Shown here piece by piece: positions 967-11,221 of a stretch of 29,953 bases of DNA; position 1 is the stretch's first letter; the number at the start of each line of letters is the position of its first letter. The notes below the pieces were generated by a model, which was not told the origin of the DNA, searched no databases, and saw nothing but the letters and a program-made list of their open reading frames with translations. The DNA lies in the IMG/VR virus record IMGVR_UViG_3300017754_000738, positions 1-29,953 of that record; one strand, given 5' to 3'. A program made the translations under genes and the position numbers. The stretch comes from a virus (taxonomy: Duplodnaviria; Caudoviricetes).

Positions 967-1206
967 TTAAACTTTCCAAGTGATGGCTTTGACAGCCCAC
1001 ATCTGCGCGGTCTGCGCTTCAGTGATTGCAACACTGCACATGCGCTTGACCTCTGGGTTATGCGTTGAATCGCGTAGGTCGTTCATGTTGTCAATGATGT
1101 TTGCAAATGCCTTCTTGCACCTGTCAACGTCTTTGTTGTTGCCGGGATTGAAGGTCAGGCCAACAGCCTTCTCTCCATAAGTAATTTCACGTTGCTCTTG
1201 AGTCAT
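967..1206 (-). CDS. Acb2/Tad1-like helical hairpin protein (putative nucleotide-signal sponge)
   Basis: AGGAG RBS; FNP motif and C-terminal RMCSVAITEAQTAQMWAVKAIT resembling the Acb2/Tad1 signature. Confidence 0.7.
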   Translation of the reverse strand: MTQEQREITYGEKAVGLTFNPGNNKDVDRCKKAFANIIDNMNDLRDSTHNPEVKRMCSVAITEAQTAQMWAVKAITWKV

Positions 1207-1217
1207 GGTTTCTCCTA

Positions 1218-3470
1218 TTAAATTGCATATGGGTTCACCCGGCGCTGCTTCTTGCCTGAGTCTTCGTAGTCATCCTCGTCGTAGTCTTCCCTTGGCGGTG
1301 GGTCAACATTGAGCCAGCCAGCGTCCCGCAGGTAGCGCAGGGCTTGCGTACACATGTCCACGAAGTCGTCGTGGGTGGTCTCGGGGAAGCTGCATATCTG
1401 GCTGACGAACGGCTCGGCCCAGTCCTTGACGTAGCCCTTCTTGCCGTCCGACTCAGGTATCCACACCCGGCCACGGCTGATGATGTTGGACACGATGTTC
1501 AGGCGCTGCACCTTGTCGGCCTTGCCGGGGTTGTAGGCCATGACCGGGAGGTGACCCCTCTGAAGGTCTTGAATCAGGCTGATGCCTGCGGACTTGTCTT
1601 CGACCAGCACGAGGTCAACCCGCTTCTTGTCCCGGCCTTCTCCGTAGACCACCTCGTACTCGTCCATGACCTTGGGGCGCAGGTCGGGGTACTGGAGCCT
1701 GTCCTGCCAGCAGTCGATGAGCATGACCGACATTGGGCCGTCCAGTGGCTTGAACACGCCCCACGTTCCAGCAGCCGTCGGGTCGTTCTGGGTCTTCTCG
1801 CTGGTGGCGCAGTCGTAGGACTGGACGATGTACTCGAACTTGGGGAACTCCTTGCCCGCAGGCCAGAGCTTGAACATGTTGCGCTTGACGATGCCGCCCT
1901 CTTCGGGGTCGATGATTTCGGCGTAGATTTCCTGCCGCCCCAGCTTGGTGCCCTCAAACTGGAGAATCTGCTTCTGGAAGTTCTTGGACAGGTTGGCAAG
2001 GTTGGTGTAGGTTGAGGCCGTGGTCATCGCCACATCGTCGCCGTCCCGGCCCACCAGTTCGATGATGAGGTCTTTCGGTCTGGGTGTCGTGGTGCAGATG
2101 AGTCTCGTCCTCTCGCCTAGGCGGACACCAAACATTATTTGTTCCCACGCGGCTTGGAGGTAGTCCCACGCAGCAAGCTCATCGCAGTTGTGGACAACGA
2201 TGCCGTTGGCTATGTACTCGTGTTCGCCGTCAACCGTCAGGTTGTAGGTTGGGCAGTTGGGCAAGCGTTCGACGCGGCGTACCGCCAGTTGCCTGAGTGC
2301 GATAGGTTCTGACAGTGGACTTTGCGCCACAGGCTTTGCAGCAGTACCTCTGGAATCTTTTGACTGCCATGTACTCTTGCTGGCAGACGATGCAGTTGCG
2401 TGGCTCTGGCGCAAACTTGGCATTCCTCCATTGCTCCACACAAGGCCGGGAGCAGAACTTGCCAGCCTCTCTCGCAGAGTGCGACACAAAGCCTGCGCCA
2501 CATTGAATGCACTTCGCATCTTTTGGGGAACGTAATCGCTCCAGCGTTTTGCGTGCGGCGGCACGCTGCTTGTCAGAGGCCGGTTGTCCTGTGGCATGTA
2601 GTCGCTGGTGCTGGCCTCGGGGCATGGCCTCCAGATTGGCTGGGTCGTTGTTGCCCTTGTCTTCGTCCTTGTGGTGAACAACCCACCCGGCTGGGATGGG
2701 GCCGTGGTGCTGCTCGTAGACCACCCTGTGCGCATGTCTGCGTCCAATGTACTTGTAGCCACCCATACCAAATCACCTTCCGTAAGTTCGCCAGCGGGAA
2801 TCCACCGAGTCCCCACCAGTATCGGATGGTCAGTCGTCAATGTCAAGCTCGTTGCGCCACAATCAATAGCCGCCAGTTGGTTTGGGTTGCCAGACAGCGC
2901 TGATGCTGTGACCATGCGCGGGCCAAAGCGGGTCTGCACCATATCCCCAGCTTGGATGGATTCCACGGGCCGCTGTGTGCCGTCAGGCATCAAGATGAGT
3001 GTGCCCGCAGGTAAACACCAACCGCCGTGGAACTGCGGGCCACGGAAGCGCTCAGGTTCGGAGGCGGGTATGCCCTTGATGAGGGAGCCGTTGGTCAGGC
3101 GTAGCTCGTGCGCGGTCTTGTTGTAGTCGGCTATCAGCGCCTTGGGGATGACGGCCAGCAAACCTGAGTCGCCCTCGAAGCAGGTTGCCCGCACGTCGGC
3201 ACTGGTCGGGGCTGCAACAAGCCAGCGTGTCCCCGGCTCGGTGTAGGCCCACCACCCTATCTGCTCGGCGGCGGTACGGGTCTTCCCGGCACCACGCCCC
3301 GCCAGCAGCAGCCAGATAGTCCACCAGTCGCCGTGGGGAAGTATCTGGTGGTCATGGGCCTGCGTGAGCCACTTCATCCGCCACGCCCACGCTATGACGT
3401 ACTCAGGGCTGGCGTTGGCTAGGTCTCTCTTGACTGCCGGGTCTTCCAGCAGTTCAATGATGTCGGTCAT
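1218..3470 (-). CDS. terL: terminase large subunit containing an intein (750 aa precursor, about 473 aa spliced)
   Basis: Walker A GRGAGKT; Walker B GGW|CDE split by the intein; TTTP coupling motif; C-terminal nuclease (SYDCA, VEDKSAG, HDDFVD). Confidence 0.96.
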   Translation of the reverse strand: MTDIIELLEDPAVKRDLANASPEYVIAWAWRMKWLTQAHDHQILPHGDWWTIWLLLAGRGAGKTRTAAEQIGWWAYTEPGTRWLVAAPTSADVRATCFEGDSGLLAVIPKALIADYNKTAHELRLTNGSLIKGIPASEPERFRGPQFHGGWCLPAGTLILMPDGTQRPVESIQAGDMVQTRFGPRMVTASALSGNPNQLAAIDCGATSLTLTTDHPILVGTRWIPAGELTEGDLVWVATSTLDADMRTGWSTSSTTAPSQPGGLFTTRTKTRATTTQPIWRPCPEASTSDYMPQDNRPLTSSVPPHAKRWSDYVPQKMRSAFNVAQALCRTLRERLASSAPGLVWSNGGMPSLRQSHATASSASKSTWQSKDSRGTAAKPVAQSPLSEPIALRQLAVRRVERLPNCPTYNLTVDGEHEYIANGIVVHNCDELAAWDYLQAAWEQIMFGVRLGERTRLICTTTPRPKDLIIELVGRDGDDVAMTTASTYTNLANLSKNFQKQILQFEGTKLGRQEIYAEIIDPEEGGIVKRNMFKLWPAGKEFPKFEYIVQSYDCATSEKTQNDPTAAGTWGVFKPLDGPMSVMLIDCWQDRLQYPDLRPKVMDEYEVVYGEGRDKKRVDLVLVEDKSAGISLIQDLQRGHLPVMAYNPGKADKVQRLNIVSNIISRGRVWIPESDGKKGYVKDWAEPFVSQICSFPETTHDDFVDMCTQALRYLRDAGWLNVDPPPREDYDEDDYEDSGKKQRRVNPYAI
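2187..3017 (-). mobile_element. intein (277 aa, precursor residues 152-428) in TerL Walker B
   Basis: N-terminal CLPAGT (block A), TTDHPI (block B TxxH), TYNLTVDGEHEYIANG (block F), VVHN|C (block G, Cys +1). Confidence 0.95.
2230..2766 (-). CDS. HNH endonuclease with C-terminal Zn-finger repeats, nested in the -1 frame inside the intein
   Basis: HRVVYEQHHGPIPAGWVVHHKDEDKGNNDPANLEAM..H..LH (HNH_3-type) plus CxxC...FCSxxC and CxxC...YCCxxC; SD AAGGTGA 6 nt before the ATG. Confidence 0.88.
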   Translation of the reverse strand: MGGYKYIGRRHAHRVVYEQHHGPIPAGWVVHHKDEDKGNNDPANLEAMPRGQHQRLHATGQPASDKQRAAARKTLERLRSPKDAKCIQCGAGFVSHSAREAGKFCSRPCVEQWRNAKFAPEPRNCIVCQQEYMAVKRFQRYCCKACGAKSTVRTYRTQATGGTPRRTLAQLPNLQPDG

Positions 3471-3775
3471 GGGCCAAACTGAACGGTGGCTTTAGCGCGG
3501 CGTCTTTTTTCACGTTCGCTGGCGTATGTTTCTTCCAGCCACTCTCGATTCACCAGCGCCAGATTGAGATTCACCAAGTAGCTGTCAATGATGTTCCACT
3601 TGCTGACCGACAAAATGATGCGGGGCTTCATGTGCAGGCGCAGGCGAAAACGATAAGCGGTGGCCTCATGCCTGTGAAAGTTGTACCAAGCCCACCAGAT
3701 GACAAAACCGCCCGGTGCCTTGCGGTAGTTCAGGCCCAGCCTCATGCTGTTGCCCTCGGGGATGTGGTGAATCAT
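3467..3775 (-). CDS. hypothetical protein between terS and terL
   Basis: ATGA overlaps with both neighbouring genes. Confidence 0.65.
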   Translation of the reverse strand: MIHHIPEGNSMRLGLNYRKAPGGFVIWWAWYNFHRHEATAYRFRLRLHMKPRIILSVSKWNIIDSYLVNLNLALVNREWLEETYASEREKRRRAKATVQFGP

Positions 3776-4365
3776 TCTGCGTTCGCTGCCTGACGCTTGA
3801 GTTCGGCGTGCTTGACAAGCTCGGCCAGACTCTGCTCGGCCTCAATCTTCACCTCAAACTTCAAGGGATTGTCGGGGTCACCACCCAACTCTAGTTTGTC
3901 ACCGTACTTCTTGGGCCTGAGCTTCATGGCCGTCCACTTGCGTGCCTCAATGCGGTTCTTCTGCCAAGCGATGTAGGAACTGCTCAGTTCGATGCGGATG
4001 AGTTCGCCAGTCTTGCTGTCAATGATGGGGTTCACCTCGGGCCGCTCGTCAGCAATCTGGACAATTTGGTCAGCCAGCGTGTCAGCTTGTTCTTCGCGTG
4101 CGCGTGCGTATCTCTTCGCGAATTCAGGGTCTCTCAGCAACCAAGCGTACACCGCCGTCTGGCATGGCATGTCTGGCTCGTTGGTGATTGACTTGAGGCT
4201 CTCCCCACTGCTGATGCGATTACAGATAAGTTCTGCCATCTCCTCTGTGTAGGTAGTGGGTGCCCCTGCGTTGCTCTTTGTGGCCTCGGGTGTGTCTACC
4301 CCTTGGCTTGTGGTCGTTTTGGGCTTTGCGGGCCGTTTGGGCGGCTTAGCGGTAGTTTCTGGCAT
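3772..4365 (-). CDS. terS: terminase small subunit (Sf6 gp1-like)
   Basis: GESLKSI...MP...VYAWL...YARAREEQADTLAD...RIEARKW..MKLRPKKYGDK; upstream of terL; AAGGA RBS. Confidence 0.9.
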   Translation of the reverse strand: MPETTAKPPKRPAKPKTTTSQGVDTPEATKSNAGAPTTYTEEMAELICNRISSGESLKSITNEPDMPCQTAVYAWLLRDPEFAKRYARAREEQADTLADQIVQIADERPEVNPIIDSKTGELIRIELSSSYIAWQKNRIEARKWTAMKLRPKKYGDKLELGGDPDNPLKFEVKIEAEQSLAELVKHAELKRQAANAE

Positions 4366-4399
4366 GGTGAATCCTTATTCCTATGCGGGCCAGTGTAAC

Positions 4400-4474
4400 T
4401 GGTTGCGGGGGCTGGAATCGCACCAGCGGTCTTCTGGTTATGAGCCAGACGGATTACTGCTTTCCTACCCCGCG
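4400..4474 (-). tRNA. tRNA-Met(CAU), initiator-like, divergent
   Basis: CGCGGGG...CCCCGCA-A-CCA with C1:A72 mismatch; anticodon arm TCTGG-CT-CAT-AA-CCAGA; atypical T-loop TGCGATT. Confidence 0.8.
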
Positions 4475-4483
4475 ATAAAAGTT

Positions 4484-4581
4484 GTTGGTGGCTGGTACTG
4501 AACTCCAGCTCACGGTGTCCTGTGGTGCGTATAGGGAGCGCATGATTCACAGGCTTCTCGTCAGTCCGAGGATTCACCAAC
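4484..4581 (-). ncRNA. C4-antisense-like RNA
   Basis: Closing stem GTTGGTG/CACCAAC; GGTGAAT..GGACTGA 5' arm and GCTGG-AGTTCAGTA-CCAGC-CACCA 3' arm resembling P1/P7-type C4 RNA as recalled. Confidence 0.6.
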
Positions 4582-4653
4582 ACGGCTGGAGGCTGGCCTG
4601 TTCTGGCGGCTCCGTCTATCACGGCAACATGCCGAGACCAGTCCCCATGCGTG
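4581..4653 (-). ncRNA. structured hairpin, c4-a1b1-like (copy 1)
   Basis: CACG-CAT-GGGGACTGG...CCAGCCTCC-AGC-CGTG. Confidence 0.55.
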
Positions 4654-10380: not shown

Positions 10381-10959
10381 TCAATTCTGCTCTGGTGTGG
10401 GCATTCGGTGCTTCCAGCAGTGGCCCTTGGCGATGCGCCATAGGTGGGTATACCGAAACCCCGTCAACCGAGCAGCTTCCGCTGGGCTAATTTCTTTGCG
10501 TTGCAAACGGTCAACCAGTTCCACGGGAACTTTGGCTCCGTGGTGTTGCTCACCCTTGGGGTACATATTTCTGGCAATCCGGTCACGCATGTTTCCTCGT
10601 TGGTCGTCCCACCGAAGGTTGTCCGGGCAATTGTTGGATGTGTCGCTATCGTTGTGGCAAGCAAACTCTCGCGCTGCTGGCTCCCTGTCAAAAGCCATCA
10701 GCACCAGCCGAGAGACTAGCTTGATGAATTTCTTGTTGTCCACACCAAACCGGACTGTCGCGTAACCGTTGCGTTGGTACTGCGACAAGAACCGGCCTTT
10801 GTAATGCTGCACCACATCTTTGTTCAGCAAAGCGGAGAATTTTTTAACCGCCCTTGGGTGACTGTAAATTCTTCCCTTGTTCGTGGCAGAGATAAACCCT
10901 TGGTACTGCGGGACAGCTTTTAGCACCTCGCCATCAAGCAATTTTGCTTCGCACGTCAT
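10381..10959 (-). CDS. NUMOD4-like/HNH homing endonuclease (192 aa)
   Basis: Start refined to ATG 10959 (GGAG, 7 nt spacing); VPQYQG..SATNKGRIYS, RLVLMAF, CHNDSDTSNNCPDNLRW...NMRD, C-terminal HTH-like segment. Confidence 0.85.
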   Translation of the reverse strand: MTCEAKLLDGEVLKAVPQYQGFISATNKGRIYSHPRAVKKFSALLNKDVVQHYKGRFLSQYQRNGYATVRFGVDNKKFIKLVSRLVLMAFDREPAAREFACHNDSDTSNNCPDNLRWDDQRGNMRDRIARNMYPKGEQHHGAKVPVELVDRLQRKEISPAEAARLTGFRYTHLWRIAKGHCWKHRMPTPEQN

Positions 10960-11221
10960 CAAGCAACTCCATTTCGGTGAACCCGTAATGAGCCTCAAAC
11001 GCTTTGCGGCCCATCCCATGAACACCCATGTTACCACGGTGATGTAAAACACACAAAGGCAATACATCCATATGGCTTGCTCTGCGCCCCATGCCAACCC
11101 CTGTTCTGTGATGATGAAGCTCAACCGGCCCCGGCTCGTGAGGGCCATGAATCCTTCTGCATACGGCGCAGCCAAGCTCGGCCACGAGCGACATGTGGCG
11201 TTGTTCGTCTTTGGTGGTCAT
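10934..11221 (-). CDS. Ref-like/DUF968 HNH-type nuclease (recombination enhancement family)
   Basis: Start at the ATGA overlap 11221; LGCAVC, ELHHHRTG.GMGRRASH.DVLPLCVLHH, FEAHYG. Confidence 0.8.
   Translation of the reverse strand: MTTKDEQRHMSLVAELGCAVCRRIHGPHEPGPVELHHHRTGVGMGRRASHMDVLPLCVLHHRGNMGVHGMGRKAFEAHYGFTEMELLDDVRSKIA

Follow-up and report, generated by a model that had tools for sequence, protein, structure and literature searches.

A phage terminase intein with a separate HNH endonuclease gene in its third reading frame and a promoter-like element in splicing block B

Homing endonuclease genes hidden out of frame within another coding sequence have been described in several systems, and the papers on them do not settle by what means the second frame is expressed. 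Here we analyse an intein in the terminase large subunit gene (terL) of a linear virus record from IMG/VR (IMGVR_UViG_3300017754_000738), which was found among freshwater metagenomes and is 55% complete; its whole length of 29,953 nt is called the window below. Within this intein a separate gene for an HNH nuclease lies on the same strand in the third frame, and we consider it likely that intein and nuclease form a homing element with two products that uses a promoter in splicing block B. The nested out-of-frame layout of an HNH gene is already published. To this the family of the window intein contributes strong comparative evidence on the way such a gene is switched on: a conserved promoter, hairpin and start codon, each at a constant position in the splicing domain, make a precise and testable answer.

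An intein-encoded HNH gene out of frame in terL has been reported for all annotated brucellaphages in the accessible passages of Tevdoradze et al. (2015; PMC4422536). As in the window, the Brucella phages Tb and Pr (JN939331, ORF07/ORF08) have an intact intein near the Walker B motif of TerL with an open host frame, and a nested HNH gene with Cys-rich modules on the same strand; the Tb record annotates both genes. The HNH gene of Tb begins, counted from the start of terL, at offset 823 and hence lies in frame 2, whereas that of the window lies in frame 3. In Tb the HNH domain (PF01844) is C-terminal and follows the Cys modules, the reverse of the domain order in the window, and only the Cys region of the two proteins can be aligned (31% over 71 aa). 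The insertion sites are GNRAD/CVIIDD in Tb and GGW/CDE in the window, the slash marking the insertion point. By frame, domain order and insertion site the window intein does not belong to the Tb/Pr lineage. Upstream of the Tb HNH gene we found no sense-strand sigma70 match, and the passages found in PMC4422536 give no expression mechanism for the nested gene.

Gosselin, Arsenault and Gogarten (bioRxiv 10.1101/2025.01.02.630785, main text) described non-canonical inteins of actinobacteriophages with an endonuclease VII-like gene in frame 3. These inteins share with ours the strand, the frame, the intact intein, the unstructured in-frame middle and the patchy distribution; many of them are situated in terL, and the origin model is the same as the one given below. 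The difference is in the nuclease, which is EndoVII-like there, the HNH inteins of that study being in frame; the window nuclease matches only HNH_3 in Pfam and HNH families in PHROGs. The words 'promoter', 'ribosome' and 'start codon' do not occur in that main text. Phillips, DeSimone and Gogarten (bioRxiv 10.64898/2026.09.14.751524, main text) found a LAGLIDADG gene in the +2 ORF of an intact cyanobacterial dnaX intein, like here with frame-dependent dN/dS, a putative Shine-Dalgarno sequence ahead of the nested start and coexisting empty, mini and full alleles. Unlike here, the nuclease is of the LAGLIDADG type and the host gene is cellular; 'promoter' and 'HNH' have no occurrence in the main text. 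The first-pass annotation of the window, made from the sequence alone, had read the locus as a dual-coded mobile element and implied that the arrangement was new. The biology is supported by the results below; the novelty is not, since PMC4422536 and the two preprints already describe out-of-frame endonucleases in intact inteins. The conserved promoter-like element, the 5' hairpin and the HNH tail that overlaps the splicing strands under double constraint were absent from that annotation.

The ShiLan domain (Arsenault et al. 2025, PMC11855218, main text) combines an HNH motif with zinc fingers, lies in the third frame and is actively homing. It is likewise nested in an open host frame, unlike here in a host DNA methylase and without an intein; for the window element a complete HINT domain is predicted. 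No ribosome site was found for ShiLan and a leaderless start was proposed; section 4.3 of the paper poses as a question how the second frame is translated, and its main text does not contain the word 'promoter'. In the fractured genes of Dassa et al. (2009; PMC2677866, as far as the accessible text goes) a split intein is accompanied by a free-standing endonuclease. Like here, the endonuclease has its own gene, overlaps the C-intein at the 3' side and is preceded by a putative promoter and a hairpin. The host gene there is broken by a stop, the signals are held in a non-coding gap of 27-51 nt and the nucleases are Vsr-like or GIY-YIG. In the window intein the host frame has 0 stops and runs on into the C-intein, and it is the catalytic codons of this unbroken frame that also carry the signals. 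All features expected of an intein with an out-of-frame endonuclease were found, namely the unbroken host frame, the selection by frame, and the patchy distribution together with a tree conflict. A promoter encoded within the splicing motifs of an intein did not turn up in our literature searches, the preprints being covered by their main texts; their supplements may list HNH cases.

In the window, terL (3470..1218, minus strand, like all features below unless stated) codes for a TerL of 750 aa. The N-extein (3018..3470, 151 aa, ending RGPQFHGGW) matches Terminase_6N and the PHROG terminase large subunit and contains the sequence GRGAGKT, which we take to be the Walker A motif. It is followed by the intein (2187..3017, 277 aa, TerL residues 152-428), which is in frame with TerL and is inserted at GGW/CDE directly before the acidic pair of Walker B. 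The C-extein (1218..2186, 322 aa) contains the +1 Cys, the remaining ATPase and the RNase H-like nuclease domain. In the TerL frame we identified C1 after GGW, TTDH in block B, TYNLTV in block F, VVHN and the +1 Cys of CDE, that is the motif set of cis-splicing class 1 inteins (C1, block B TxxH, terminal His-Asn and +1 Cys). The Pfam family Intein_splicing was matched with an E-value of 1.7e-6, under the gathering score, and the AlphaFold model of the intein matched 23 HINT structures in the PDB at E<=0.001. In this model the predicted local distance difference test score (pLDDT) reaches about 95 over residues 1-80 and 93-96 between about residue 241 and residue 277.

The N-terminal splicing domain comprises residues 1-87 (2757..3017) with block B at T61-x-D63-H64. 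C1, T61, D63 and H64 are invariant across 19 aligned inteins, and the ratio of nonsynonymous to synonymous differences per site (pN/pS) of the host frame is 0.37 in this domain. The C-terminal splicing strands (2187..2300; block F TYNLTV, block G VVHN) are overlapped in their first part by the end of the HNH gene. Because TerL is essential, the Walker B motif is interrupted and the splicing motifs are present, the TerL precursor presumably splices.

According to Pfam, motifs and model there is no endonuclease domain fused in frame, as is canonical for full inteins. The host frame between the splicing parts is a linker without recognisable domain (residues about 88-239, 2301..2756), poorly conserved and with a pLDDT <50 at residues 90-160 and 179-235. 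Over the nested-ORF stretch it is composed of S24, T21, A19, P17 and R16 among 179 residues, and in mini-inteins it is excised in frame. The host frame here is a linker selected mainly for staying open, and it models as disordered.

The nested HNH gene (2230..2766, frame 3 or -1, 178 aa) begins at intein offset 251, and both frames are open through all 537 nt. Its product consists of an HNH_3 domain (about 10-57), a helix, two Cys4 modules and a tail overlapping block F. HNH_3 was matched with an E-value of 8e-19, no other Pfam family was found, and HNH PHROGs match the protein as well. The eight conserved Cys residues form two modules (C86/89/105/109 and C125/128/142/146), which probably bind Zn. 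H13, H31, H32, D34, N39, N40, N44, H53 and H57 are invariant among 29 aligned HNH proteins, and Pfam, alignment, profile and model agree in an intact beta-beta-alpha-metal HNH motif. The mean pLDDT of the model is 82. The top profile match was I-HmuI (PDB 1u3e, E 4e-4), which was also the top Foldseek match of the model, weakly so (E 0.01, TM 0.28), Foldseek giving no match at E<=0.001. At the aligned sites of I-HmuI and the nested HNH, D-H...N replaces H-H...H, and the match contains no Cys4 modules. I-HmuI is intron-encoded and nicks DNA. An antisense ORF (2400..2903, plus strand, 167 aa) was considered as a gene and rejected, as it is not conserved; in relatives the antisense frames hold 0-10 stops.

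The arrangement might also be an artefact or a relic: two sequencing errors that compensate each other could have shifted an HNH out of the intein frame, or the gene could be dead. The data are assemblies and not reads, one contig of run X11 aligns with 2 unplaced gaps, and an in-frame HNH of the same family exists in another intein (L059). On the other hand, gap-free contigs run over the intein in X1, X2, X4 and X7, and over 2126-2953 in X3. The contigs of X1 and X2 are identical to the window and possibly stem from the source sample, those of X3, X4 and X7 show 4, 154 and 138 substitutions. As the identical frames in 21/21 relatives and the strong purifying selection given below also speak against an error, this explanation is effectively refuted and we give it practically no weight. 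The first-pass description stands in its structural parts: the splicing motifs at 3017-2187 are intact with a predicted HINT fold, the in-frame middle is rich in S/T/P/A/R and free of a nuclease motif, the 178-aa HNH protein with two Cys modules is encoded at 2766-2230, and a sequencing frameshift is effectively excluded.

An HNH search yielded 64 loci; 15 of them are 62-75% identical, and these 15 are all at the same terL site and in the same frame. With additional loci included, 21 distinct inteins at the terL site (828-876 nt) were obtained, and in 21/21 both the host frame and the frame-3 HNH are open; later scans took the distinct inteins to 24. The whole-intein protein used as query against viral contigs found zero relatives because the middle of the host frame is unconserved. 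With the N-domain as query against metagenome contigs 11 loci were obtained, one of which is the record of the window itself. Three loci (L068, L088 and L271) contain the same intein and start position with a longer, different HNH N-terminus (YDGVTWHKRPSG type), which suggests module exchange.

Selection was assessed as pN/pS per frame in 14 distinct inteins (91 pairs). In the core, pN/pS is 0.27 for the HNH frame, 1.26 for the host frame and 1.40 for the third frame, and the identity is 71% in the HNH frame versus a mean of 40% in the host frame; in 55 of the 91 pairs the synonymous sites of the HNH frame have reached saturation. At the start of the HNH gene the greatest variability moves from the third to the second position of the host codon, the latter being HNH position 3, and at block F it moves back. 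Where the final ~30 codons of the HNH gene run into the C-terminal splicing strands, both frames are constrained (pN/pS 0.72 host, 0.47 HNH). No host-frame stop was observed in the 21 inteins, which are related and non-independent, versus 68 expected with the codon usage of the exteins. L, V and I codons ending in A occur before a purine in 0/250 cases versus 49/243 before a pyrimidine. Synonymous recoding of the window HNH keeps the host frame open in 12-24% of the trials, so that the open host frame of the window alone is unremarkable and the argument rests on the family. The family supports a dual-coded element with purifying selection on frame 3 and stop avoidance in the host frame. Two of the checks that had been proposed for this idea, recurrence of the nested ORF in homologous inteins and selection by frame, turned out in its favour, and the model of a disordered linker agrees with it.

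Upstream of the nested gene, within block B, we identified a match to a sigma70-type promoter (TTGACA-N17-GATACT, 2818..2846), the function of which is predicted. A plain promoter scan of window positions 1000-4600 (3.6 kb) gave 3 hits, the best of which is this one (2846..2818). The hexamers are written by the block-B codons TTG ACA (L58, T59) and CCG ATA CTG (P65, I66, L67), and the spacing in L-T-x-T-x-x-H-P-I-L sets TTG-ACN and CCN-ATH-CT exactly 17 nt apart. Leu58 is TTG in 21/21 inteins, a codon that makes up 11% of the Leu codons in exteins and 32% in the intein's N-terminal portion. Ile66 is ATA in 17/21 inteins, the share of ATA in exteins being 10%. The other four have ATC or ATT, all together with CCT at Pro65, which turns xATACT into TATxCT; CCT is found at Pro65 in 0/17 of the inteins with ATA. 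At this place the promoter score is at least 9/12 in 21/21 inteins. The nested start is ATG in 20 and GTG in one, at a distance of 51 nt from the -10 box in 21/21. The host codons behind ATG are GTA, TTA, CTA or ATA before TGG or TGT, and CTG TGC behind GTG. When the host protein was recoded synonymously, this promoter arose in 6-15% of the trials, corresponding to 1.3-3.2 of 21 inteins, and ATG in 9-22%.

A codon-blind pattern, allowing any codon for the block-B motif, returned 55 loci (43 distinct). Forty-two of the 43 are family members, all with TTGAC, a score of at least 9/12 and ATG (41) or GTG (1). The sole outsider has an in-frame LAGLIDADG-like domain and a promoter score of 8. The -35 and -10 hexamers thus appear to be kept at 17 nt beyond what the protein needs, as for a sigma70-type promoter.

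A 7-bp hairpin (2791..2808) lies 2-3 nt past the predicted transcription start (about 2811). In 23 sequences 161/161 cells keep the pairing, and one pair varies between A-U, G-U and G-C (one two-sided change). This was equalled by 4/500 shuffles in a control that ignores relatedness, and the hairpin also came up in folds. It leaves the ribosome site uncovered; 16 leaders were searched for a structure that would hide this site or ATG, and none was shared over the start (z-scores -1.9 to +1.1). A Shine-Dalgarno-like AGGTGAT (2772..2778), written by the E-G-D codons of the intein, is situated 5 nt ahead of ATG. From these signals, the nuclease would be transcribed from the internal promoter by the host sigma70-type polymerase, translated from the ATG at 2766 and hence made independently of the intein frame. 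Run X20, which is probably DNA, spans the intein in pieces only.

Several points weigh against a functional promoter. The counts of 21/21 and 42/42 are drawn from related sequences and are non-independent, so TTG and ATA could persist through descent; this is offset by the synonymous sites of the same intein, which are near saturation (pS 0.66-0.76). The outgroup control of the promoter is one intein, and the Shine-Dalgarno match is variable and weaker in many relatives. Only two mini-inteins bear on this question. One of them, L262, is without most of the HNH and yet retains ATG and the promoter match, as expected if the deletion is recent but also if the signals persist without function. Among 43 more distant clusters only 21 show a match of at least 9/12, hence the promoter is not universal.

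Mini-intein L262 and the distant clusters lacking a match favour an alternative in which the homing element is the same and the nuclease is made from the long terL message only, by internal initiation, the promoter match being an accident of the motif kept by descent. The motif spacing alone yields a match in the stated share of recodings, so that a single ancestor could suffice. Against it, TTG is fixed in 42/42 sequences while adjacent synonymous sites vary freely, and the changes from ATA to ATC or ATT are paired with CCG to CCT in 4/4 cases. Moreover, the hairpin starts at the predicted transcription start, and the matches in the distant clusters are 21 in sense versus 2 in antisense direction. 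We therefore regard internal initiation alone as unlikely.

A third way to express the gene would be a fusion made by programmed ribosomal frameshifting from the terL frame. The gene is nested on the same strand and a -1 shift would suffice. In the window, however, a frame-3 stop lies two codons before ATG, which leaves about 6 nt without a slippery run; the host codons V, L and I use a rare third base that preserves ATG or GTG; and the shifted product would be without block G and the C-extein. A frameshift fusion is very improbable.

We return to the predicted block-B promoter. Somewhat better than even, in our view, are the chances of a wider proposal, namely that block B itself is a working promoter, with 29 bases serving both as splicing motif and as sigma70 promoter and followed by a hairpin, a ribosome site and an ATG made from splicing-domain codons; that the nuclease is produced early via the host polymerase; and that nested frame-3 HNH genes with their own promoters are common yet unannotated in phage terminase inteins, as a living intermediate between free, split and in-frame forms.

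Mobility of the element was assessed from its allele states. The insertion has no counterpart in homologous alleles: the intein site is empty at 63 loci of this TerL family, near relatives with 91-98% identical best segments among them, and joints skipping exactly 831 nt were found in the public runs X2, X9 and X11. A contig of X9 shows an in-frame 432-nt deletion of the HNH core. L262 contains a mini-intein of 146 aa resulting from an in-frame deletion inside the HNH; since the HNH start, promoter match and tail are retained, the full element must be its source. The three allele types, empty, full and mini, are states of the homing cycle.

An extein tree was calculated with 68 rows, after exclusion of L012 and L089 for their short flanks, of L135 for its frameshift, and of L038, L108 and duplicates. 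The window allele is placed in a clade (100/100) with 10 empty alleles, and the presence of the intein requires at least 5-6 changes on the tree. In two pairs the inteins are more similar than the exteins, L002/L005 (exteins 84% identical, inteins 96%) and L076/L077 (82% and 92%). The window intein is sister to that of L009 (100/99), yet the extein of L009 is the most distant from the window extein (70%). Approximately unbiased (AU) tests on the intein data reject 3/3 extein clades (p 0.007, 0.049 and 0.0005). It has to be held against these results that the AU groups were picked after viewing the extein tree, that one p value is marginal, and that intein-bearing and empty rows were gathered by different queries with uneven sampling. 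The patchy distribution and the conflict between intein and extein trees fit homing. In the exteins next to the insertion site no co-conversion tract is evident. In L135 an otherwise empty terL has an 8-nt frame-shifting insertion at the intein site (about 1471-1479), which is either a repair scar or an assembly error.

The nuclease could also be kept as a packaging helper of the terminase and not for homing. Kala et al. are said to have found in 2014 that HNH proteins assist some terminases. The host gene is terL in 30 of the 36 genes scanned for the distant clusters, and the idea has been raised for brucellaphages in the accessible passages of PMC4422536. The 63 empty TerL loci, near relatives included, argue against a helper, with the limit that HNH genes elsewhere in those genomes were not looked for. 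The in-frame deletions remove the HNH, and the tree conflict points to mobility. We consider a packaging role improbable.

For the homing element we propose the following mechanism. A long terL message would give the TerL precursor, from which the intein would be spliced out, its overprinted stretch forming a disordered loop. The HNH nuclease would be made from ATG 2766 on a short message that starts at the predicted block-B promoter. The nuclease would nick or cut intein-free terL near GGW/CDE, and repair would copy the whole intein in. Target site and nicking are suggested by the resemblance of the nested HNH to I-HmuI, and site-specific nicking or cleavage of the empty allele by the allele distribution. 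The element likely originated by insertion of a free-standing HNH gene into a mini-intein. Frame 3 was likely favoured because host-frame stops are then few and mostly avoidable synonymously; in this layout a host stop needs NTA before a purine or NTG before A. The likely benefit would be that nuclease expression is uncoupled from the late expression of terL.

To see how widespread the HNH family is, a profile census was made, with 135 distinct HNH hits as the outcome; its counts are not frequencies, as nested genes were favoured by the queries. The hits were binned by regular expressions, whereby the in-frame L059 fell under free and 4/6 'non-intein' rows were inteins on inspection. In 71 cases, the window's own record among them, an intact intein contained the gene in its frame 3, and in 2 cases in frame 2; a further 7 genes were nested but had no recognised intein end, 18 adjoined split inteins and 37 were free or other. 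The 78 nested rows kept form the 43 clusters at 55% identity mentioned above. Besides terL, the 36 host genes scanned included 1 portal, 1 methylase, 1 unassigned and 3 truncated and unclear genes. The sense-strand promoter matches ahead of the HNH compare with 8 clusters having a match in the HNH body, 7/40 further upstream, and 9.4 expected from shuffles. An excess was also found at split (13/18) and free (16/36) HNH genes. Genes of this family seem to tend toward promoters in every setting, half of the nested clusters showing none. For most unnested HNH hits the frame that would host them has fewer stops than the third frame.

The cultured phages TJE1, Highwayman and phiCDHM19 (L156, L157, L158) contain nested HNH genes in terL inteins that their GenBank records leave unannotated, just as the first-pass annotation had expected of annotators. 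The gene of phiCDHM19 has a 12/12 promoter match, and no relative of its HNH was found among 26 pattern matches in genome contigs. Many phage terL inteins filed as degenerate or as 'unknown insert' are likely to hold live nucleases missed by annotation. One HNH family is found as a free gene, between the parts of split inteins, nested in another frame and fused in frame, and these forms correspond to the steps of the proposed route by which inteins acquired endonucleases.

Further arrangements were noted in the census. This TerL family has a second intein site, situated in its nuclease domain (DDxVD[AS]/C...), with a frame-3 HNH and a TTGACT-17-[CG]ATAAT match (L107:772-3117, L012:1-2832, L072, L109, L110, L114, L120, L132, L138, L140); L012 and L072 bear inteins at both TerL sites. 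Two inteins interrupt the terL of L037 (593-3811), and in both an HNH gene is nested in frame 3 with a promoter match of 11/12. In L035 and L221 the nested HNH is in frame 2 of an intact intein, not in frame 3. In L212 (975-3008) and L234 the family HNH is situated in frame 3 of DNA methyltransferase-like genes without intein motifs, as ShiLan-like insertions. L059 (1444-4449) has the family HNH fused in frame within the intein of a DNA polymerase-like gene, the host being judged by eye. At 18 loci an intein is apparently split, with the HNH gene placed between its two halves (L020-L032, L039, L042, L043, L050, L172, L173, L190, L197 and others).

In the window, terL is preceded by terS (4365..3772; Pfam/PHROG). 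Between the two an ORF of 102 aa (3467-3775) is without Pfam or PHROG match; inside it a 9/12 promoter match (3678..3650) is directed toward terL. The terminase genes are flanked by tRNA-Arg(TCT) (506-582), tRNA-Pro(TGG) (603-677) and tRNA-Met(CAT) (4400-4474), all on the minus strand. Pfam and PHROG matches on the window further include a C5 methylase, a replication initiator and a transglycosylase, in addition to these three tRNA genes. A second endonuclease gene on the window, free-standing and of the NUMOD4-HNH type, is located at 10381-11175, also on the minus strand.

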